A stretch of 64,000 bases of DNA from the IMG/VR virus record IMGVR_UViG_3300029989_000005; one strand, 5' to 3'. Below, piece after piece: positions 1 through 57,831 of this stretch. Source of the stretch: a virus. A program made the translations under genes and the position numbers. Each line of letters opens with the position of its first letter. The first letter of the stretch is position 1. Under the pieces are notes generated by a model that saw only the letters and a list, made by a program, of their open reading frames with translations, was not told the DNA's origin and ran no database searches.

Positions 1-154
1 ATATTGAATTGAGGATTTTTTTCAAAGATAAATCCTCACTCTTTTTGGTAAATCTCAAGTTTTCAAGACGTATAATTTCATCTTTAATTTCTTGTACTGT
101 CACCTCTTGTCCTTGCTTAAACCTGCAGTACTGTAAACCTAAATTATATACCAT
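1..154 (-). CDS. Partial hypothetical protein running off the window start (MVYNLGLQYCRFKQGQEVTVQEIKDEIIRLE...)
   Basis: ATG at 154, 2 nt after the helicase stop; frame open to the window edge (translated by hand). Confidence 0.6.
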   Translation of the reverse strand, partial: MVYNLGLQYCRFKQGQEVTVQEIKDEIIRLENLRFTKKSEDLSLKKILNSI

Positions 155-156
155 GA

Positions 157-1554
157 TTAAAATTGACCATTTATATTATTGAATATACCACCAAAACCAT
201 CCGATTCCTTCTTATATTCTTTAACATCATTTTTATTTACATTACTCATAAATTCCATAACCGCATTATCAACCATTACTTCAGAAATTCCTAATGGTCT
301 TTTTAATTTTATACCTGATAATTTAGTACATCTAGATAAGGCAACATATGTCTGACCCGTGTCGAATATTCCTCTTTCACCTGTATCTATGACATATTCT
401 TCAATAGTACAAGACTGAGATTTATGTATAGACATGGCATAACCTATGGATATTGGATATTGGATAAATTTTCCTGTACCCATAGACCTAACCTCATTAG
501 ATGATTTATCAAATTCATATTTTTCAGAATGGAACTCAACCTTGCCTATACTTACAATACAGCCGCTGTCTAATTCAACATCCATAAGCTCACCATCAAA
601 ATTAATAAGTTTTCCAACAGTTCCATTGATATATTGCCCGCTTTCTCTATCATTTGAGCGAATCATAACCCTAGCACCTATTTTTATTTTTATTACCTCG
701 TCAACAGCACATTGCTTAACATTGAAATTTCCTTCTACTTTACCAACCAAAGTTATTGGTTTTGAACTTATTTCGTCAAGTTTTTTATTATTATAATATT
801 CTACATCCTTATTATAAGTACATAATACAATGGCATCATCTTTAATTTCGTTATGAACCATAATTTGGTTATGTTCATTAAGCTGAGAACGTGTTATTGT
901 GCCATATTTTATAGAATTTAAAAATGAAATAAATTTTTCATCTTTCTGTCTAAAAATTCTTGTAAAATTTATGGTTGTAATTGGTACAAATTCAAATGGT
1001 TTTGCTGAATAAAAGTATTTTGAGCCAAATGTATGCCTGATATAATCCATTTCAGATTTATCTGAAATTACAGGTGGTAATTGGTATAAATCACCAACTA
1101 ATATTAGCCTCTTTCCACCAAAAAATTCGTCTATATTAAGTGCTTTTCTATAAAATTCGTCTATTGCCGAAAGCATTAAAGATGAAACCATTGATATTTC
1201 ATCTATAACTAATGTTTCGGGTATGGCATACTTTTCTAAGCTATTTTCATTTGGCTTATGTATATTACACGGAAATAAAGGCTTAGGTGGGAATCCAAAA
1301 TAAGAATGTATGGTTTCACATTCTATACCATCTGTTCTTAGGTTGTTGGCGGCAACCCCTGTAGGAGAAAGCACAACATACGAACCAAGTTTCATGTTTG
1401 ATAATAAAAGTTTTAGGAACGTAGATTTTCCTGAACCCGCAGAACCTGTTATAAAAAACACACCGTTTTCTGTTGTTACAGTATCATATGCCTTTTCAAA
1501 TTCGTCTGTTATTTCTAACCAATCAGGTTTAATAAGTTTTGATAAATCAGCCAT
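157..1554 (-). CDS. PIF1/RecD-like SF1B DNA helicase
   Basis: Walker A ITGSAGSGKST, motif Ia LSPTGVAA, TIHSYF, Walker B IDEISMV, GDLYQLPPV, FRQKD, HKSQ and YVALSR; start placed at MADLSK. Confidence 0.92.
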   Translation of the reverse strand: MADLSKLIKPDWLEITDEFEKAYDTVTTENGVFFITGSAGSGKSTFLKLLLSNMKLGSYVVLSPTGVAANNLRTDGIECETIHSYFGFPPKPLFPCNIHKPNENSLEKYAIPETLVIDEISMVSSLMLSAIDEFYRKALNIDEFFGGKRLILVGDLYQLPPVISDKSEMDYIRHTFGSKYFYSAKPFEFVPITTINFTRIFRQKDEKFISFLNSIKYGTITRSQLNEHNQIMVHNEIKDDAIVLCTYNKDVEYYNNKKLDEISSKPITLVGKVEGNFNVKQCAVDEVIKIKIGARVMIRSNDRESGQYINGTVGKLINFDGELMDVELDSGCIVSIGKVEFHSEKYEFDKSSNEVRSMGTGKFIQYPISIGYAMSIHKSQSCTIEEYVIDTGERGIFDTGQTYVALSRCTKLSGIKLKRPLGISEVMVDNAVMEFMSNVNKNDVKEYKKESDGFGGIFNNINGQF

Positions 1555-1599
1555 TTTTATTATATTTTGTAATTTTATATAAAAACAGACCAATATTAA

Positions 1600-2373
1600 T
1601 CAAGCCTCATATGAACCCTCAGCATTTACAAGCCTACTCAAAGGTACTCTATTGCCATCACGAAGCTCTTTAGGGTTTGAAAGATTTAAGGAATTTATCA
1701 TTGAATTTGTTATCAACGATGTAAGGAATGAAAAAGCATTAGATGATTCAAGCATTGTGTATTTTATACAATGGCAGTCAACGATTTCTGTCTTTTGAAA
1801 TTTATCTTCAAATATAGTTTCCTGTAACCTTGATTCATCACCTATTAATTTAAAACACACATCTGAGAATACAGACATATCTTCTTTGTTAAAAATGTCA
1901 ATTATGGAAAGCTTTTTTTGAACTGTGTAATTTGTACATCTAATCACACCTTGTGATTGATACTTTTCTTTTACTAGATTAACTATATTTTTAAGAGTTA
2001 TATTTTCATTTCTTCCTAAAGATACTATATCATTTTCATAATTAGCGTCTTCGCCTATTGTTATAGATATTATACCATAGTTTTTAATATTGATCTCAAT
2101 TTTATCTCCAACAATAAAATTTTGACATAATTTAATTGCCGCACAATTATAAATATTAAATGTTCTCCAATATTTACATAGATCATGAGTTGCTGTTGAG
2201 ATTGCATCCTCTCGTATATCATCGGTAGCTAAATAGAACCTTTTACCAACATGTAAGCAATGCTTTCTGAACATATTCAGAAAATCTGTACTGAGTTGAT
2301 TGTTGATTATACATTTTCTAAGTTCAACATCATATCTTTCCCTGTCTATGTAATAATTGTTCTGTTTTGCCAT
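1600..2373 (-). CDS. T4 gp55-like late sigma factor with a large internal insertion
   Basis: N-terminal YYID...EL, then REDAISTA...KYWRTFN and NAFSFLTSLITNS, matching the gp55 pattern (EMIADG...HNFD...NPHAYITQ). Confidence 0.65.
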   Translation of the reverse strand: MAKQNNYYIDRERYDVELRKCIINNQLSTDFLNMFRKHCLHVGKRFYLATDDIREDAISTATHDLCKYWRTFNIYNCAAIKLCQNFIVGDKIEINIKNYGIISITIGEDANYENDIVSLGRNENITLKNIVNLVKEKYQSQGVIRCTNYTVQKKLSIIDIFNKEDMSVFSDVCFKLIGDESRLQETIFEDKFQKTEIVDCHCIKYTMLESSNAFSFLTSLITNSMINSLNLSNPKELRDGNRVPLSRLVNAEGSYEA

Positions 2374-2380
2374 AATAGTA

Positions 2381-4081
2381 TTAATTTGTATGTGGTGATT
2401 CTTCTTCAATCATTGTTTTGTTTTTCTCAAATTCTTCCAATGTCATAATTGCGAATTTGTCAATATATAGATATTTTTGAGAGTACATTGGTTGACCTTT
2501 ATCATTTTTTATAGCCTCATACAATTTAATCATATCGAGTTTTTTCTTAACTGTCATTGTTTGTTTGGCATCCTCAATCAAGAAATTGGCATTGTGTTTT
2601 ATTCCAAACGATGTTCTAAAAGATTTGTCTGCTTTTAATTCTTTATGTTTAAGCATACAATTTATATAAATTGGTGCTGAAAGTACTTGGTTAAAAGTAG
2701 TCATCATACGATTTATAAAATTGAAGTAAGATAAATCCTCATAGGATAAGTTATCATCAGCGTAAAATATAACCTTTCCACCACCATTATTATCAGCTCT
2801 ATCAAATCGTTTTGTTGGAAGTCTAGATATTTCGTTTAGTCTACCATTAAAATAATCAACAACTTTCATGTTTGTCAAATCTGGACCTTCCTGTTTAAGT
2901 GTGTCTATCTGTGATTGAGAACCATTAACCGATGGTACTACAATATTCCTTGAGTACGATATAGATGGTTGACCGTTTACAGTAACCTCACCACTGTCAA
3001 AATTTATAAGTAATGTTTCTTTAAAATGATTAACAAATTTCCTTAATGCTTCAAGTGCTTTATCTGTTGTTTTATTACCAACAGGTACTACCATCTTTAT
3101 ACGTGATTGGCAATTCATGATAAACCAACCAACTGTAGCATCCTCTAATTTTCTTTTTAAGTTGAAATCCCTGAGTAATCTTTCAACATAAGACAGATTT
3201 CCTGTAGTATCTATATCCAAATATGGTATATAAAGTATTTGATTTTCAGATAATGTTACCCTACTACCATCTGTTTTTACATATTCCCAACCTTTAATTT
3301 TTTTCTGATTCTCACTAAGATCACGTATATCAACATATTTAAGCCTATTTGGGTCAATTTCAACAAATCCTATAATTTTTACAGGATATATATCCTCTTT
3401 CTCAGTGCCATCTGTATAAAATTTACTGTTTTCATACATTTCAAATAGGCTTTGTATTTTATCAAGACCACTTTGGACTTTGGCTACTTGACCTTTGTAT
3501 ACTTTAACTCTTTCTTTATCATCTTTTTCTAATTTCAGATTTTCATTTATGGAAACTAATGATTTTTTAAGTTTAATTATTTGATCATTAAGTTCTGCTT
3601 TTGTTTTATATTCATACAGGATTTCGTATGATAGACACCCATCTATTAGCCATTGTCTGTATTTTTTCCAAGCTACATTTTCTCCATCAAAATCCAATAG
3701 TGAATATACATCCTCAAAAAATGACATTATTGATTCCTTTACATCCTTTTGGTATTTTTCATTTGTAAATTTTATTTCACAGTACCTGTTGAATTCGTTC
3801 GTTATAACTGAATCATCACATACACAATCTAATATATATTCTATTTCAGGATACGTGGAAAATTTTCTTAAGTATTTTCGTTTTTCGTTATAACTAGATT
3901 TTGAATATGAATTGTCCTCGTATGTATCTTCATGCCCTCTAGACCAACTACTATAGGCTTTATATAAATCATCCTCATATGTTATAGAATTGGTTTCTTT
4001 AATTATAGAATAATCAATTCCTATATTACCAAGCCGTTCAGCTAGTTTTGTTATAGGTTTAAACAATATTGGTATAGCCAT
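2381..4081 (-). CDS. Portal protein (T4 gp20-like)
   Basis: YPEIEYILDCVCDD, YRQWLIDG, LSYVERL, KLEDA, IDTL-EGPDL, VDYFN-RL...SRLP-RF: the gp20 motif series. Confidence 0.88.
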   Translation of the reverse strand: MAIPILFKPITKLAERLGNIGIDYSIIKETNSITYEDDLYKAYSSWSRGHEDTYEDNSYSKSSYNEKRKYLRKFSTYPEIEYILDCVCDDSVITNEFNRYCEIKFTNEKYQKDVKESIMSFFEDVYSLLDFDGENVAWKKYRQWLIDGCLSYEILYEYKTKAELNDQIIKLKKSLVSINENLKLEKDDKERVKVYKGQVAKVQSGLDKIQSLFEMYENSKFYTDGTEKEDIYPVKIIGFVEIDPNRLKYVDIRDLSENQKKIKGWEYVKTDGSRVTLSENQILYIPYLDIDTTGNLSYVERLLRDFNLKRKLEDATVGWFIMNCQSRIKMVVPVGNKTTDKALEALRKFVNHFKETLLINFDSGEVTVNGQPSISYSRNIVVPSVNGSQSQIDTLKQEGPDLTNMKVVDYFNGRLNEISRLPTKRFDRADNNGGGKVIFYADDNLSYEDLSYFNFINRMMTTFNQVLSAPIYINCMLKHKELKADKSFRTSFGIKHNANFLIEDAKQTMTVKKKLDMIKLYEAIKNDKGQPMYSQKYLYIDKFAIMTLEEFEKNKTMIEEESPHTN

Positions 4082-4141
4082 AAATTTATTTTATATTATT
4101 TAAACAAATATTGTTTAAAAGTTTCATTATCTTATATTTAA

Positions 4142-4170
4142 AAAGCCTGTAATTGTTCATCACAGGCTTT
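4142..4170 (-). terminator. Intrinsic terminator hairpin
   Basis: aaagcctgt/acaggcttt inverted repeat followed by a T-run on the minus strand, downstream of 4191..4904. Confidence 0.6.
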
Positions 4171-4190
4171 ATTTGTACTATATTTGTAAC

Positions 4191-4904
4191 TTATTTGCTT
4201 GTTTTTGCTTTTTTGTTTTCAAAAACAGCTTTACGATACCTTTTCTTTACTGATTCATTGATTGATTTTTTAATACCATCTTTACAGGCTTCATCAATAT
4301 TTTCTTCATTGTTCACAATTGCATCAACTGTAGCATCAACTATGTCACCAACAACATCAGATGGAATACCCGCATCTACCATTGCACCAACCAAATCATT
4401 AACAGATATTGTTTCAGTACCTGTAGCACTTGTGGCAGCGATTATTTGATCTTTTACATCATCAGTAACAGATTCAGTACCTGTTAATATACCATCAATA
4501 TCTCCACTTTCAATAATTTTATCATCAATTATTTCATCCGCCTCTGATTCTGTGATTTCTGTGATTTTTGCTTTACCACCTTCATTTGCCTCAGCTTTTT
4601 TTATAATTTCATTTGATAACAAAATCTCAGGGTCAAACTGTTGACCATCCTCAGATTGGAAATATCCATTGTCAGAAACAAAAGAACCGCTACCATTTGA
4701 AAAAGTACCTTGGTCATCTACATATGTTAATGTTGAATCAACAGGTAAAACAACCTTATCATCAACACTTAAATCATCTGTTGTTTTGTAAGTGTCACCA
4801 TCTGTTAGCTCAACACCAAATTTTTCAGAAGCGAAATTTTCAAAAACAGGAAGTTTTTTACCAATTTTAGACTTAAAAGTTTCGTTGATTTTATAAGCTT
4901 TCAT
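4191..4904 (-). CDS. Acidic hypothetical protein, probable head/prohead core component
   Basis: Adjacent to portal, upstream TAAATAAT motif, several [I/V]xE sites (KINE, VFEN, ITES, SINES). Confidence 0.45.
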   Translation of the reverse strand: MKAYKINETFKSKIGKKLPVFENFASEKFGVELTDGDTYKTTDDLSVDDKVVLPVDSTLTYVDDQGTFSNGSGSFVSDNGYFQSEDGQQFDPEILLSNEIIKKAEANEGGKAKITEITESEADEIIDDKIIESGDIDGILTGTESVTDDVKDQIIAATSATGTETISVNDLVGAMVDAGIPSDVVGDIVDATVDAIVNNEENIDEACKDGIKKSINESVKKRYRKAVFENKKAKTSK

Positions 4905-13112: not shown

Positions 13113-13772
13113 TTACACTTTGTTTTTATTATTTATTTTATAAATTGTTTTTGTTAACCAATATTCAAATTTGGTTAACCAATTTTTAGATTTTATGTTT
13201 GAATAATACAGTTCAAATATTGGAATGTGATTGAATTCTGAGGTTTCTTTGTTGAGTATTTCTATACCAGTATCGGCAGTTACACAGTTATGCACTTTGA
13301 TACCATTAGCAACGAATACATGCATTTTGTTACTTATAGTTAAGTCAAATACTCTATGAAATCCCAATATTTTTTCTATCGATTTTACCTCCTCACAGAA
13401 TCCACCTGAATTTATAACACTATATTTGCTGCCTGTATGCATATCAATTTTGTGTTTGAGATCAGCAATAGAAAAAAATTTATCATTTCCTTTTAACACC
13501 TCTGTAACCTGATATATAGGAAGTATATGGTCTTGGGTGGCATATAAGGTTTTACCACCATATGTTTCAAGTTTGTATAATCTTTTTATACCTGTGTAAT
13601 GAACATGGGTTATTTTTGACTCTTGATCTTCATCTATGTTTACAAAATACCCAAATTTACTTATGTTATAAGACCTATATTCCTTATAAATCATAAAATA
13701 TTCTAAGACCTCTATTAATTTAATAGAGGTCTTATATACACATATTTTTAAATTATTTAACAATATTATCAT
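13113..13772 (-). CDS. Extein-less split-intein fusion: IntC (residues 1-162) directly followed by IntN (163-219)
   Basis: Block B ATQDH, block F VFDLTI, block G FVANGIKVHN, then immediately block A CVTADTGIEI...IPIFELY; C163 codon at 13286-13284. Confidence 0.8.
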   Translation of the reverse strand: MIILLNNLKICVYKTSIKLIEVLEYFMIYKEYRSYNISKFGYFVNIDEDQESKITHVHYTGIKRLYKLETYGGKTLYATQDHILPIYQVTEVLKGNDKFFSIADLKHKIDMHTGSKYSVINSGGFCEEVKSIEKILGFHRVFDLTISNKMHVFVANGIKVHNCVTADTGIEILNKETSEFNHIPIFELYYSNIKSKNWLTKFEYWLTKTIYKINNKNKV

Positions 13773-14232
13773 ACGCCAATTTATAATCCTCGTTAGTCAT
13801 TTCGAAGATTGTTTTAATTCTATCCTTTTTAACTATTGATATTATCTCACTATCAGACATATATCCTACCTTGCTAATATATTCAGATATTTTTTTATAT
13901 GCATCACAGCTATCATTTGAAACATAAAAATTGTTGGTTGCTGTTTTATTACCTTCACCCGTACTAAATTTAACGGCTACTTTGTAATAAAAATCGCTAT
14001 CATCACCAACAACACCCTCAATTTCTTCCTTCAATATCTTTTTGAATTCAAGTTGCTTTCTGTTTTCAATAGATATACATTCTTTACATATCATATCAAG
14101 ATTTATAAGTTCCTTGAATATATTTTCAGCATCTGTATAATTTAGTGCGGGAATATAATATTCTTGTGTCTTTGGTACTATTCCGAAGTCCGTTTTGGTT
14201 TCTTCTTTAATCAGTGCTTTGAAGTACATCAT
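13753..14232 (-). CDS. DUF4494-like protein (Bacteroidota-associated)
   Basis: YFKALIK...EYYIPALNYTDAE...FYYKVAVKF...DSEIISI matches the two-repeat DUF4494 pattern as recalled. Confidence 0.6.
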   Translation of the reverse strand: MMYFKALIKEETKTDFGIVPKTQEYYIPALNYTDAENIFKELINLDMICKECISIENRKQLEFKKILKEEIEGVVGDDSDFYYKVAVKFSTGEGNKTATNNFYVSNDSCDAYKKISEYISKVGYMSDSEIISIVKKDRIKTIFEMTNEDYKLAYDNIVK

Positions 14233-35239: not shown

Positions 35240-36328
35240 ATGGGACTATTAGAAATTTTGGAAAAAACTTTAAATGCTATATTAAAAATAGTTATATTTT
35301 TAAATTATAATCTGTGGAAATATAAAGTTGAGGAAGACTGTATAATTAGTTCCTCTATTCCTAAAGATAATTTATTGGTAAACGGTATAAAGGGTGGTCA
35401 ATATTTATCGGCTGTCCATATTAAGACAAATGCCGAAATACTTAAAATAACTACTAAAAATGGATGCTTTGTAAAGTGTTCTGTAAATCATTTGTTTTAT
35501 GATTCAAATATGCAGATAATTGATGCTAATAACGTAACAAGGCAGACATTTTTAATCACAAAACAAGGAATATCACGTGTTGTAAAAGTAGAAAAATTAC
35601 CTAGACAATTTACTTTTGATGTTACAGTTGGTTCAGGAGAAATGAGTTATTTTTCTAATGATATACTGAGCCATAATTCTATTACATCAGGTATTTTTAT
35701 AATGTGGTATTTACTTACCAATTATGATAAAGGTGTCGCATGTACTTCGGCAACCGATGATAAAGTTAAAGAACTTATAGAAAAGATAGATACAATATAC
35801 GACAATTTGCCATTTTATATGAAACTTGGTATATGTGTTGATAATCAAAAGAGGAAAATATATGATAATGGCTGCTCAATAAAAGGTGAAACAGCAACAG
35901 AGAAAGCGGGTGCAGGTCTTACTGTTAACGGTATACTTTACTGTGATGAATTTGCACTGATTGACCCACAGGTATTAAAAATATTCTATCAAACTATTTT
36001 TCCAACAATGTCATCGTCAAAAACAGCAAAGATGATAATTACATCTACAGCAAGAGGCAGAAATTTATTTTGGCAATTGTACACTGATGGATTACTTGGT
36101 AAAAATTATTTCAATCCTATACGTGTAGATTGGTTTGATGTTGAGGGTAGAGATGATAAATGGAAACAAGAGGAAACAGCCAACATAGGTTCTGAGGAAG
36201 CATTTGAGCAAGAGTATGGAAATAGTTTTGATACCAATCAACAATTACTTTTGCCATCTGATGTTATGAAGTCATTAAAATCATATCAATCACACTTTAC
36301 AAATAATCGGCTTTCCAATGCATCTTGA
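35240..36328 (+). CDS. terL: Terminase large subunit ATPase fragment fused behind a split-intein C-half
   Basis: 146-aa IntC (CSVNH, FDVTV, YFSNDILSHN ending 35677), then +1 Ser SITSGIF (post-Walker A), Walker B LYCDEFA, motif ITSTARG, FEQEYG. Confidence 0.88.
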   Translation: MGLLEILEKTLNAILKIVIFLNYNLWKYKVEEDCIISSSIPKDNLLVNGIKGGQYLSAVHIKTNAEILKITTKNGCFVKCSVNHLFYDSNMQIIDANNVTRQTFLITKQGISRVVKVEKLPRQFTFDVTVGSGEMSYFSNDILSHNSITSGIFIMWYLLTNYDKGVACTSATDDKVKELIEKIDTIYDNLPFYMKLGICVDNQKRKIYDNGCSIKGETATEKAGAGLTVNGILYCDEFALIDPQVLKIFYQTIFPTMSSSKTAKMIITSTARGRNLFWQLYTDGLLGKNYFNPIRVDWFDVEGRDDKWKQEETANIGSEEAFEQEYGNSFDTNQQLLLPSDVMKSLKSYQSHFTNNRLSNAS

Positions 36329-37185: not shown

Positions 37186-38664
37186 ATGATAAATTCAAAA
37201 CAAATATTTAATGACATGTCTATCTCCTATTTCAATGAAAATGGTGAAATAGACTTGGTTAATATTCCAATTTCAGATAGTGAAAAATTTGTTTGGGAGG
37301 AAGCAGGATTAGATGATAGATACAAACATCCTACTATAACATCTCAATTTGATAGACCCGTAAAAAAGATACGTAAAAATTATCTAACAAAATACAGGCA
37401 ATACGAATATATAAATAATTTACCACAGCATTTACAGGACAAAATATTTTCAGATAACAAGCCAAAGAAATGGTTTTGGGATATAGAAACAGAAACTGTT
37501 AATGGTGTGTATACCGAGGCATCCAATCCTATTGGTAGAATATTACTCCATACTATTTGTGATGAATATGGAAATGGTACTATATTTGGGATGAAGGAAT
37601 TGACGGGTGAGCAATTAAAAAGAATTGAAATAAAATTAAACGCTCATTTATCTAAAATATTGGATAAAAAAATAGTTAAACAAGTAAATCTAAAATACCG
37701 TCAATACAAAGATGAATACTCCATGAATTGCGATTTTGCCGTAAACTATATGAGCAAAATGTCTGTAATATTCGGTTGGAATGTTTTAAAATTTGATGCA
37801 CAATATTATTTTAATAGGTGTAAAAGAACAGGTATTGATTATGCAAAAATTATATCACCTGTAGGAAAAACATTTTCTCATTCGCTTTCTGATAAATACA
37901 ACAAAGAAAATAAAATAATATTAGATTTACCATTGCATAGACCAATTATTGATTATATGCAAATATTTGAATTCTTTGACCAATCTGTTGCGTATAAAAC
38001 ATCTATGTCATTAGGGTTTATTTCGAATGAGGTATTGGGTGTTACCAAAATTGAATACAATGGAAACTTACAAGATTTATACGACACAGATTTTGAGAAA
38101 TTTTGCTTTTATGGTATAACTGATGCTTTTCTTGTAGAAATGATTGACAAGAAAACCGATATATTTTCCTTGATGCAAACTATAACCAACATTGGAAAGG
38201 TTGATTTACTTTTGGGAACATCGGTTTCAATTATAATAGAATCAATCTTTAGTGATTATTATTACAAAACTTACAATAAGGTATTTATAAAAGAAGAAAA
38301 CATAAAAGAAGGCTATGCGGGTGCTTTTGTTGTTGAGCCAACAATAGGCTTATATGAATACATTGGCATTTATGACTTCGAAAGTCTTTATCCATCCATA
38401 ATGCAATTCCTAAATGTTGGTCTTGATACTTATATAGGTCAAACATATGACGATAAAACAACCGTTGTTACAAAAACAGGTGAGCAAATACCATATGATA
38501 AAAACACTATGATACGTGCTAACAATGGTGTAGTATATACAAGTGAAAAAGATGGATGTGTTAGAACTGTCATAGACAACTTGTTTACAAAGCGTGTTAA
38601 GGCAAAATATGCTAATCATGATATTGCTCATGATATAGAAGAACTTAAAAAATTAATAGCTTAA
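37186..38664 (+). CDS. Family B DNA polymerase, N-terminal part (exonuclease plus motif A); split gp43-like
   Basis: ExoI WDIET, ExoII GWNVLKFD, ExoIII YGITD, YAGAFV-EP, motif A YDFESLYPSI; stops before motif B (KxxxNSxYG). Confidence 0.9.
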   Translation: MINSKQIFNDMSISYFNENGEIDLVNIPISDSEKFVWEEAGLDDRYKHPTITSQFDRPVKKIRKNYLTKYRQYEYINNLPQHLQDKIFSDNKPKKWFWDIETETVNGVYTEASNPIGRILLHTICDEYGNGTIFGMKELTGEQLKRIEIKLNAHLSKILDKKIVKQVNLKYRQYKDEYSMNCDFAVNYMSKMSVIFGWNVLKFDAQYYFNRCKRTGIDYAKIISPVGKTFSHSLSDKYNKENKIILDLPLHRPIIDYMQIFEFFDQSVAYKTSMSLGFISNEVLGVTKIEYNGNLQDLYDTDFEKFCFYGITDAFLVEMIDKKTDIFSLMQTITNIGKVDLLLGTSVSIIIESIFSDYYYKTYNKVFIKEENIKEGYAGAFVVEPTIGLYEYIGIYDFESLYPSIMQFLNVGLDTYIGQTYDDKTTVVTKTGEQIPYDKNTMIRANNGVVYTSEKDGCVRTVIDNLFTKRVKAKYANHDIAHDIEELKKLIA

Positions 38665-38675
38665 AAATAAATATT

Positions 38676-38960
38676 ATGGAAGGTGAAAAATTAATAGTAG
38701 ATGTAATTAAAAGTAGAATACTTGTTAAAATTGAAGAACAAATTGAACAAACCGAAAGCGGATTGATAGCTATAAAAATTGATGATACAGACCAAACTCT
38801 TGGTGAAATTGTCGGTGTAGGTGAAAGTGTAGGTGAAAATACTGTTGTTGGTAAAAGAGTAATGTTTAATAGATTTTCAGGTACTCAGTTAACTATCGAA
38901 AGCAAAAAATATAGGGTTATGGAAGAGGGTGATATTTTATTAATCATAACCAAAAAATAG
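38676..38960 (+). CDS. groES: Co-chaperonin GroES
   Basis: RILVK...QTESGLI...GEIVGVG...FSGT...MEEGDIL. Confidence 0.92.
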   Translation: MEGEKLIVDVIKSRILVKIEEQIEQTESGLIAIKIDDTDQTLGEIVGVGESVGENTVVGKRVMFNRFSGTQLTIESKKYRVMEEGDILLIITKK

Positions 38961-39045
38961 CCCTCTGCTGCAGACGATATACTTTCCTTTAATTTAAATC
39001 ATTTTCATAATACTAACATAACAAAAATATATAAAATTTAAAAAA

Positions 39046-40644
39046 ATGAATGACAAAGTACAAATAAAAACAGGTGCTGAGGCAAGAGATACGATACTTT
39101 ATGGTGCAAAACAATTATGTGATATTGTATCATCTACACTAGGTCCTGGAGGCAAAAACGTATTACTCAAGCATTTAAATGAAAGAATCATACAATCCAC
39201 AAAAGATGGTGTCACTGTTGCTAAATTTATAGAACTTGAAAATGAATGGGAAAACATAGGGTGTAACCTGCTCAAGCAATCATCAATGAGAACGGCATTA
39301 AATGCGGGTGATGGCACTACATCTACGGTTGTGTTTGCTTATGCACTTATGAAAGAGATAAATGAATTTTTGAAATCAAATCCTGATTTTAATGTTCATA
39401 AACTCCGTGATGATTTAAACAAATCAAAGGATTTGATGATTGAATATATTAAGGATCATTCAATAATTTCAAAAACAAATAAGGATATTAGAAACATTGC
39501 CATGATTTCTACAAATGGAGATGTTAGAATATCCGATTTGATTGCATCGGCATATGATAAATTCGGAAATGAACATGGAACTATAATGGTTGAACCATCA
39601 CCATCAACTGAAACATCAATAACTATACAAAGCGGGATTAAAATAGCTTCGGGATATTCTAGTTATATGTTCATGACAGATGTTAATAAGATGATTTCTG
39701 AGCTAACAGATTGTGGTATAATTATAACAGACCACAACATTTCAAAAGGCTCTGATATGTTAAAAATTCTTAGTATAGCCAATACCAATTATAAATCATT
39801 ACTTATAATTGGTGAGAATATTGAGGGTGAAGCTGTTCAGACTATGATTGCCAATCATATGAGCCAAAAGATGAAAATATGTTTGATAAAACCAACATTT
39901 TACGGTGAAAGAAGAAAAGATTATTTGTCAATGATTGCATCCGCTACATTAGCAACACCTTTTTATATTGAGTCTGGTACTAAGCTAGCTGAATTCAGTT
40001 CTAAGTTTATTGGCTCTGCTCAAAAAATTGTAGTGAGTAAAGATGAAACAAATATTCAAATATATGACATTAATAAGCCTAATCTTGATACAAAAATTTG
40101 TCAAATAGAGGAAAATATAAAGTCTATGATTGAAACAGGTTCACCCGAAGAGAATGAGGCTATTCAATGGAAACGTAATTTGCTATCTTTTGCAAAGGGA
40201 AATATAGCTACGATTAAAATCGGTGGTAATTCCGATACAGAAATTTATGAGGTAAAGGATAGAATTGATGATGCAATAGCTGCCGTTAAATCATCTATTG
40301 AGGAAGGTGTATCGGTTGGTGCGGGTGCATCATACATAAAGGCTGCTTATCAATTACCACCTTATTCAATTTCAGGCAATTTGATTAAGTCGGCATCGGA
40401 ATCAATAAAAAGAAAATTGTTAAGCAACTTGTGTATTTCCGATATTGATAAGCTGATTATAGATGACATATTAGATGACAATAATGGTATTAATATGTAT
40501 GGTGAATTAGCAAACCTTGTCGAGGATGGTATTATCGACCCAACAAAAGTAATAAGGAATTGTATAGAAAATGCTATTTCCGTAGCTACAATGTTTTTAC
40601 TTACCGACAATATAGCGATGAAAGTCGAGGACATCTTAATATAA
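39046..40644 (+). CDS. groEL: Chaperonin GroEL
   Basis: STLGPGGKNV, TKDGVTVAK, AGDGTTS, KDRIDDA--A, GIIDPTKV. Confidence 0.95.
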   Translation: MNDKVQIKTGAEARDTILYGAKQLCDIVSSTLGPGGKNVLLKHLNERIIQSTKDGVTVAKFIELENEWENIGCNLLKQSSMRTALNAGDGTTSTVVFAYALMKEINEFLKSNPDFNVHKLRDDLNKSKDLMIEYIKDHSIISKTNKDIRNIAMISTNGDVRISDLIASAYDKFGNEHGTIMVEPSPSTETSITIQSGIKIASGYSSYMFMTDVNKMISELTDCGIIITDHNISKGSDMLKILSIANTNYKSLLIIGENIEGEAVQTMIANHMSQKMKICLIKPTFYGERRKDYLSMIASATLATPFYIESGTKLAEFSSKFIGSAQKIVVSKDETNIQIYDINKPNLDTKICQIEENIKSMIETGSPEENEAIQWKRNLLSFAKGNIATIKIGGNSDTEIYEVKDRIDDAIAAVKSSIEEGVSVGAGASYIKAAYQLPPYSISGNLIKSASESIKRKLLSNLCISDIDKLIIDDILDDNNGINMYGELANLVEDGIIDPTKVIRNCIENAISVATMFLLTDNIAMKVEDILI

Positions 40645-56994: not shown

Positions 56995-57831
56995 ATGTAT
57001 TCTGAAACACTGCTTGATCTTGATATGTATTTCTTAGTTCATTCATCTATTGACATATCAAGATTTAAAGATGAACGTAGGAGATTTGTACACTCAATAG
57101 ATTTGGCTGAGGGAACGGGTGGTGATTATTCAGTCATAAACATCTTTGAGGTTCTACCTATGACCATTGATGAAATAGGAAAAGTATCAATTATAGAAGA
57201 TGAATATTCTTTTTTTAAAATGGTTCAGGTTGCTATGTTCAGGTCAAATCAAGTAATAGTACCCGAATTAGCTAAATGGTATTATCATTGCTTAGTTGAG
57301 CTTTTTATACCCGATAACGTAAGGACATGTCTTGAAAATAATTATGATGGAAACTATTTTAGGGAAATTGTTATTAAATTATATGGTGAGGAGAATGAAA
57401 TAGATGGCGATTTACTTTTCTTACAATTTGCATACAATATGAAAGATGATCAATCTTATGCTGTGCGTGTTGGAATCAAGCAAAATGACCATACTAAAAA
57501 CTTGGGTACTACAATGATGAAAACCCAAATGAGGCAGACACAATTGGTATTAACAGAATTTATAACAATAGAGGAGGCATTATCATTTGCACGAAAAAAA
57601 TTAAAGAATGGTAATTTTGGTGGATATTGTGCAATGATTGGTAATGATGATTGTATAATGACCTCTGTAAATATCACACACGTAAGAAAATTACCTGAAT
57701 TTCAAGAGCTTGTGGATGATATTTCGCAATATTGCCCACAAGAATTTTGGAATGCTATATCTGATATAATGGGTAAAGTGCCTTTACAATCCGATGATTC
57801 AGGTGATCTAACATCAGTATTCAATAGATAG
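56995..57831 (+). CDS. terL: Terminase large subunit C-terminal RNase H-like nuclease domain as a separate gene
   Basis: SIDLAEGTGGDYSVINIF, QVAMFRSN, LENN, GNDDCIM correspond to gp17 nuclease motifs. Confidence 0.85.
   Translation: MYSETLLDLDMYFLVHSSIDISRFKDERRRFVHSIDLAEGTGGDYSVINIFEVLPMTIDEIGKVSIIEDEYSFFKMVQVAMFRSNQVIVPELAKWYYHCLVELFIPDNVRTCLENNYDGNYFREIVIKLYGEENEIDGDLLFLQFAYNMKDDQSYAVRVGIKQNDHTKNLGTTMMKTQMRQTQLVLTEFITIEEALSFARKKLKNGNFGGYCAMIGNDDCIMTSVNITHVRKLPEFQELVDDISQYCPQEFWNAISDIMGKVPLQSDDSGDLTSVFNR

Follow-up and report, generated by a model that had tools for sequence, protein, structure and literature searches.

An intein-only protein of a T4-like phage as the candidate middle link in two-step trans-splicing of the large terminase

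In a T4-like large phage we identified a protein that consists entirely of intein parts, and which, judging from its sequence and from those of its relatives, is probably the middle link of a two-step trans-splicing relay that joins the ATP-binding loop of the large terminase (TerL). The protein, which we call the adaptor, carries a C-terminal intein half (IntC1) and, directly after it, an N-terminal intein half (IntN(b)). Its gene lies in a stretch of 64,000 nucleotides, called the window below, that has 29% GC and encodes a T4-type portal, gp13, a UvsW-like helicase, GroES/GroEL and a family B polymerase. The adaptor gene and its parts are the following:

13113..13772, minus strand: adaptor gene, 219 residues in the order helix, IntC1, Cys163, IntN(b), helix; an open reading frame with a PF14890 match, a conserved family and a predicted HINT fold.
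13692..13769, minus strand: N-terminal amphipathic helix of IntC1, residues 2–27; a helix in the AlphaFold2 model.
13287..13772, minus strand: IntC1, residues 1–162, with block B (Thr79/His82), block F (Asp143) and block G (His161-Asn162).
13284..13286, minus strand: codon of Cys163, putatively both the +1 nucleophile of intein 1 and residue 1 of intein 2; invariant in 14 of 14 family members.
13116..13286, minus strand: IntN(b) and C-terminal helix, with block A strands at residues 163–191 and the helix at 198–215, from the IntN HMM and AlphaFold2.

The first-pass annotation had read this frame as intein parts only, without an extein, and the Pfam, profile, HMM and structure matches bear it out. 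Residues 50–162 of the adaptor correspond to positions 34–155 of the 155-position Pfam Intein_splicing model (PF14890, E 3e-6), and the adaptor family profile aligns with solved inteins from about residue 21 through to the end (gp41-1, E 3.5e-10). Since these alignments miss only the intein start, all of an intein but block A sits before Asn162, with block B at residue 78, block F at 141 and His-Asn-Cys at 160–163. The 57-residue tail (residues 163–219) scores 72 bits (E 4e-21) against an HMM of TerL IntN tails. AlphaFold2, given an alignment of 14 rows, returned helices at residues 2–27 and 198–215 around a beta-rich core (pLDDT 82, pTM 0.75), and the top matches of this model to the PDB in Foldseek are all inteins (E 1e-6 and weaker); as modelled, the adaptor is a HINT fold, and the N-terminal helix of IntC1 is the counterpart of the second helix in the split-point hairpin of contiguous relatives. 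Pfam, PHROG and HMM searches found no TerL or other domain in the adaptor, and all 219 residues are assigned to helix, IntC, IntN or helix. Thus the adaptor has blocks B, F and G and a +1 Cys, and its system is split between blocks A and B as an atypically split TerL intein is, but it lacks the extein on each intein half that an ordinary split-intein precursor has.

The adaptor family comprises about 14 sequences down to about 25% identity. Four are close metagenomic homologues with 50–74% identity, and about nine are distant homologues, among them full-length adaptors of 198–232 residues that an exhaustive profile search added. Thr79, His82, Asp143, His161, Asn162 and Cys163 are invariant in a six-sequence alignment, and in the 14-sequence alignment His82 of block B, Asp143 of block F, the His-Asn-Cys motif and one Glu and one Tyr of the IntN are invariant, with the IntN core retained throughout. 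With this many homologues and with invariant catalytic residues the adaptor ORF is not due to chance. Scans of viral contigs with P0084, P0064 and distant adaptors as queries gave nothing useful.

These homologues bear on a reading of the adaptor as a contiguous mini-intein, in which Cys11 opens block A behind a short N-extein and the last 57 residues form a C-extein. The first-pass annotation had itself raised the chance that Cys11 is the true block A, and the Val-Tyr-Lys-Thr-Ser that follows this residue does loosely resemble one. Position 11, however, is Leu, Phe, Phe and Phe in the four close homologues, the region is a predicted helix, and solved inteins align only from residue ~21 onward. 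Because Cys11 is not conserved we rejected this reading, to which we give practically no weight.

Directly upstream of the adaptor lies a DUF4494 gene (window 13753–14232, minus strand; L118:2799–3353; L124:3289–3846), which in the window overlaps the adaptor start by 20 nt. The same linkage is found in two distant adaptor lineages (P0015 and P0019).

The terminase that the adaptor would serve is itself broken into pieces, which are encoded as follows:

1,163–1,669 nt before window base 1 (pointer 1..157 in the window; L123:6001–6507), minus strand: TerL-N–IntN(a)–helix gene, P0010, 168 residues.
35240..35677, plus strand: helix and IntC2, 146 residues, with block B at 80–84, block F at 126 and SHN/S at 144–147; nests with the IntC of two-piece TerL systems.
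35678..36328, plus strand: TerL-mid extein, in which Ser147 (+1) completes Walker A and the rest of the ATPase domain follows; phrog_2, PF03237.
56995..57831, plus strand: gene of the TerL nuclease domain, 278 residues, found with the C-terminal third of full-length relatives as tblastn query (E 5e-32 to 8e-21).

A gene in which a Walker A Gly-Lys is followed by Cys and block A had been predicted to exist elsewhere in the genome, and P0010 is that gene in the window's own phage: the contig that carries it, L123, is 100% identical to window positions 1–4838. P0010, which lies outside the window and adjoins the C-terminal DNA polymerase piece, ends its terminase portion with the Walker A Gly-Lys and continues as Cys, IntN and helix. 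Likewise, in a complete relative of 167,485 bp (G001) the TerL profile matches a 157-residue ORF that ends with Gly-Lys, Cys, block A and a helix. The terminase piece at 35240, described in the first-pass annotation as starting with a similarly built IntC, turned out to be just so, with a helix, IntC2 and SHN/S before TerL takes up after Walker A; TerL-mid matches positions 291–462 of the phrog_2 profile with E 9e-19. The insertion thus falls after Gly-Lys of Walker A, as TerL-N ends with GK/Cys and TerL-mid resumes at Ser; uninterrupted TerL relatives have GK-Thr at this site. Among the tblastn matches, cyanophage ACG-2014d has an ordinary uninterrupted TerL and the TerL of phiM12 is annotated as two adjacent genes. 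Cys111 of TerL-N is invariant, as are Ser81, His84, Asp127, His145, Asn146 and Ser147 of the TerL-mid gene. All three genes, with every catalytic residue retained, also occur in a further complete genome (G002, 150 kb) that has a higher GC content and is more divergent. In this genome TerL-N and TerL-mid are only 2 kb apart on the same strand, and the adaptor is ~47 kb away.

The TerL nuclease gene lies 21 kb from TerL-mid, and its ORF at 56995–57831 has no match in Pfam. HMM searches of 56995–57831 gave no IntN or IntC signal at this second TerL break. As TerL-mid ends without an IntN, the second break is not intein-mediated and the parts must associate non-covalently; with the nuclease domain separately encoded, four genes are needed for one terminase.

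The family B DNA polymerase of this phage is also encoded in two genes, with no intein involved. Its N-terminal part is at window 37186–38664 on the plus strand (PF00136 positions 34–136), and its C-terminal part, of 405 residues (L123:4685–5902, PF00136 positions 152–237 onward), lies just before the window start beside TerL-N. A phage GroES (94 residues) and GroEL (532 residues) pair occupies window 38676–40644 on the plus strand.

Two IntN and two IntC halves allow two wirings. In the relay, IntN(a) of TerL-N pairs with IntC1 and IntN(b) pairs with IntC2 of TerL-mid; in the direct wiring, IntN(a) pairs with IntC2 and the two halves of the adaptor pair with each other. Family HMMs detect exactly two IntC and two IntN in the complete G001 genome (next E at least 0.03), and in the window they detect the corresponding three intein halves and nothing else significant. 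All three genes are present in each of the three genomes with an a-type TerL-N, which are the window phage, G001 and G002.

A natural fused form, P0064, fixes the order of the parts. This 376-residue protein, present on three contigs, one of 167,877 bp, aligns over residues 3–112 with TerL-N of P0010 through the GK junction (46% identity, E 7e-36) and over residues 207–371 with the adaptor through His-Asn/Cys into IntN(b) (E 8e-13). The IntC of P0064 is of IntC1 type by score (46 bits, versus 4 bits as IntC2 type), and the tail that ends the protein is b-type (61 bits, versus 11.5 as a-type). The IntN part of its contiguous intein is too divergent for typing by sequence, and AlphaFold2 run without an alignment gave a pLDDT of 33. 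From this layout, P0064 joins IntN(a) and IntC1 in a single contiguous intein with IntN(b) as its C-extein, and cis-splicing of this intein must yield TerL-N–IntN(b), which is the intermediate of the relay. In the phage that encodes P0064 (L107:10001–13290) the TerL-N–intein–IntN(b) gene stands directly before GroES/GroEL, where the window has the N-terminal polymerase part; split terminase pieces do move around between related genomes.

P0064 also bears on a reading in which the adaptor is a self-complementing permuted intein. Here IntN(b) would fold on the IntC1 of its own chain or of another adaptor copy, the adaptor would be a stand-alone HINT protein with a role such as self-cleavage at Asn162/Cys163 or binding, and TerL would be joined through IntN(a) and IntC2. 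AlphaFold2 does fold the adaptor alone into a compact structure, in which the IntN(b) strands have pLDDT 74–87 and both terminal helices are formed. That model fits the relay and self-complementation alike, and with only 14 rows in the alignment the fold was likely filled in from a HINT-fold prior. In P0064, by contrast, the IntC1-type half is contiguous with a different upstream IntN, which makes IntN(b) its C-extein rather than its partner. Endonuclease genes lie between TerL-N–IntN and the adaptor, as they do in fractured genes, and because Cys163 directly adjoins Asn162, the two scissile bonds would coincide in one peptide bond, so that only cleavage would be possible. Self-complementation would further leave the strict co-occurrence of the adaptor with a split TerL without explanation. 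We consider this reading improbable.

The relay order is further supported by gene layouts in relatives. On L115 and L116, two contigs that otherwise match, TerL-N–IntN is followed by the adaptor, with a 412-residue endonuclease-like gene between them in one variant only; on L119 the adaptor is followed by two small genes and IntC-TerL; and on L108 the adaptor stands between a Vsr-like endonuclease gene and a GIY-YIG endonuclease gene. These gene orders are collinear with the relay and equal the fractured-gene layout of Dassa et al. (PMC2677866) twice in tandem. The TerL-N IntN of the P0022 lineage (L115:9237–9800, L116:770–2627) starts with Gln, which is non-canonical compared with Cys or Ser.

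A viral-contig scan with TerL-N recovered many two-piece systems and one contiguous intein (L089), inserted at the same site, and in all of them IntN is followed, and IntC preceded, by a helix; the IntN tails are 48–58 residues long including the helix. One two-piece TerL split intein belongs to a 462-kb huge phage (LR756500, L021:2848–4734); its IntC ends with Ser-Ser-Gln instead of His-Asn, and a gene for a 366-residue Vsr-like endonuclease lies between its halves.

In a tree of IntC sequences, IntC1 (13 sequences, including P0064) is set apart from the two-piece TerL IntC together with IntC2 (SH-aLRT 95). An HMM of the two-piece family gives 44–67 bits for IntC2 and 7–32 bits for IntC1, and in every case tried the IntN tails of two-piece systems scored higher with the b-type than with the a-type HMM. 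None of the IntC1-clade members found is fused to TerL; the C-extein is always IntN(b). The corresponding tree of IntN sequences, which are too short to resolve, has support of only 54/20 at its deep split, so that the assignment of a- and b-types rests mostly on position, IntC and the fused form. The rates of evolution match the same pairing. Identities between genomes are 75/51/49% for IntC2 and 65/46/46% for IntN(b), the best-conserved part of the adaptor, versus 43/31/29% for IntC1 and 56/34/40% for IntN(a). A slow pair of IntC2 and IntN(b) and a fast pair of IntC1 and IntN(a) favor the relay wiring. The order put forward in the first-pass annotation, namely TerL-N/IntN1, IntC1/IntN2 and IntC2/TerL, is supported by independent comparisons, namely P0064, the gene layouts and the IntC tree. 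Two further comparisons were uninformative. The score of a predicted complex of the TerL-N tail, IntC2 and the adaptor was not specific versus a control, and when the net charges of the four helices were compared by eye as a pairing code, all were Lys-rich with no clear complementarity.

IntC1 and IntC2 belong to one superfamily, and hence IntN(a) could cross-react directly with IntC2, which would make the adaptor dispensable. In this alternative, which we regard as unlikely although it is the one to be taken most seriously after the relay, TerL is joined by IntN(a) and IntC2, and the adaptor is a remnant of a second intein, harmless or slightly competitive, that may also feed the same product through the relay. 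The two homologous inteins share their split point and helix design, every residue needed for a reaction between IntN(a) and IntC2 is present, and TerL-N and TerL-mid are near neighbors in G002. In the adaptor P0084, moreover, both halves look like the ordinary two-piece type, making cross-reaction plausible at least there. A dispensable gene should decay, however, and the adaptor is found in three of three long genomes with an a-type TerL-N, with its catalytic residues kept down to 25% identity and IntN(b) as its most conserved part. IntC1 and IntC2 are also only 28–31% identical and fall into separate clades.

The relay that we favor over direct splicing and self-complementation involves two atypically split inteins, each with a short IntN and a long IntC, placed in tandem at a single TerL site. 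They separate the Lys of Walker A from the Ser that comes next, and no extein residue stands between them. Their four halves are distributed over three genes as TerL-N–IntN(a), the adaptor IntC1–IntN(b), and IntC2–TerL-mid. First, IntN(a) would dock on IntC1, aided by the two flanking helices, which form a hairpin in contiguous relatives, and trans-splicing would join Lys110 of TerL-N to Cys163 of the adaptor to give TerL-N–IntN(b). Second, IntN(b), now with Cys163 as its own residue 1, would dock on IntC2 and splice. This would join Lys110 to Ser147 and restore the P-loop, and no adaptor residue would be left in the product. How the relay reacts chemically, that its two pairs are orthogonal and that the adaptor is required are inferred from the sequences.

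As to its origin, a split intein with a free-standing homing endonuclease likely invaded a TerL allele that already held another split intein, and it would have used Cys1 of the resident intein as its own +1 residue. The endonucleases would later have been lost in the window's lineage, and the pieces scattered over at least 58 kb. The first-pass annotation had described the system as a three-gene AND gate for DNA packaging. Such a function is speculation, and a simpler origin is that two selfish split inteins came to be stacked on a shared hot spot. A broader proposal, on which we are evenly balanced, is that the IntC1 clade represents an intein that lives only atop another. In all 14 members found the C-extein would be the resident TerL IntN, whose Cys1 is borrowed as the +1 residue; in the window's lineage the pairs would be orthogonal and the adaptor obligatory and traceless, and assembly of the ATPase would need three products in a fixed order.

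Several elements of this system are already known: atypically split TerL inteins, fractured genes, engineered tandem trans-splicing and neighboring inteins spaced by extein residues. AceL-TerL is one atypically split TerL intein. GOS-TerL inteins of this kind were described from metagenomes, in fractured genes, by Dassa et al. in 2009 (PMC2677866). The present system resembles both in having a T4-type large terminase as host, a split after block A, a short IntN and a long IntC with blocks B, F and G, and, in relatives, a fractured-gene layout with a free-standing homing endonuclease. That last feature is present in L021, L108 and L116; in the window, none of the three genes has such an endonuclease gene as its neighbor. 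Unlike GOS-TerL and AceL-TerL, which are two-piece systems with each half on an extein, there is here a third gene in which the IntC of one intein is fused to the IntN of the other, and paired helices flank the split point in the window's lineage.

Engineered three-segment tandem trans-splicing with orthogonal split inteins (PMC7210297, PMC12707363, PMC7090010) uses the same logic, with a middle segment of the form IntC(1)–…–IntN(2) and two sequential reactions that turn three polypeptides into one protein. The engineered middle segment leaves an extein in the product, whereas the natural adaptor would leave nothing; its Cys would serve as +1 residue of intein 1 and residue 1 of intein 2 and depart with intein 2. 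Several inteins can also occupy neighboring sites in one host protein, as in haloarchaeal MCM (PMC10643990). We observed another such case in P0076, an unrelated 701-residue P-loop protein with two contiguous inteins beside Walker A that are 9 extein residues apart. Both share with the present system the presence of more than one intein in one conserved motif region, but they have extein residues between the inteins, where here there are none and both inteins are split. Circularly permuted inteins are used for peptide cyclization in SICLOPPS. These likewise have IntC before IntN in one polypeptide; their halves, however, derive from one intein and flank the peptide to be cyclized, and here there is no insert and the halves apparently come from different inteins. 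A search of full-text literature that covered few subscription journals found neither a natural extein-less IntC–IntN protein nor abutting inteins that share one Cys.

If confirmed, the adaptor would be the first natural protein made of intein halves only, a traceless connector between two trans-splicing reactions in which a single Cys does double duty, as the +1 residue for the first intein and as residue 1 for the second. The family offers co-evolved and presumably orthogonal pairs of atypically split inteins, with a short IntN and built-in helical zippers, as parts for multi-segment protein ligation and labeling. For the biology of these phages, confirmation would mean that one insertion site can hold inteins on top of each other, and that an enzyme essential to the phage can become reliant on a gene from which it receives no residue, which would clearly illustrate how selfish elements build up complexity.
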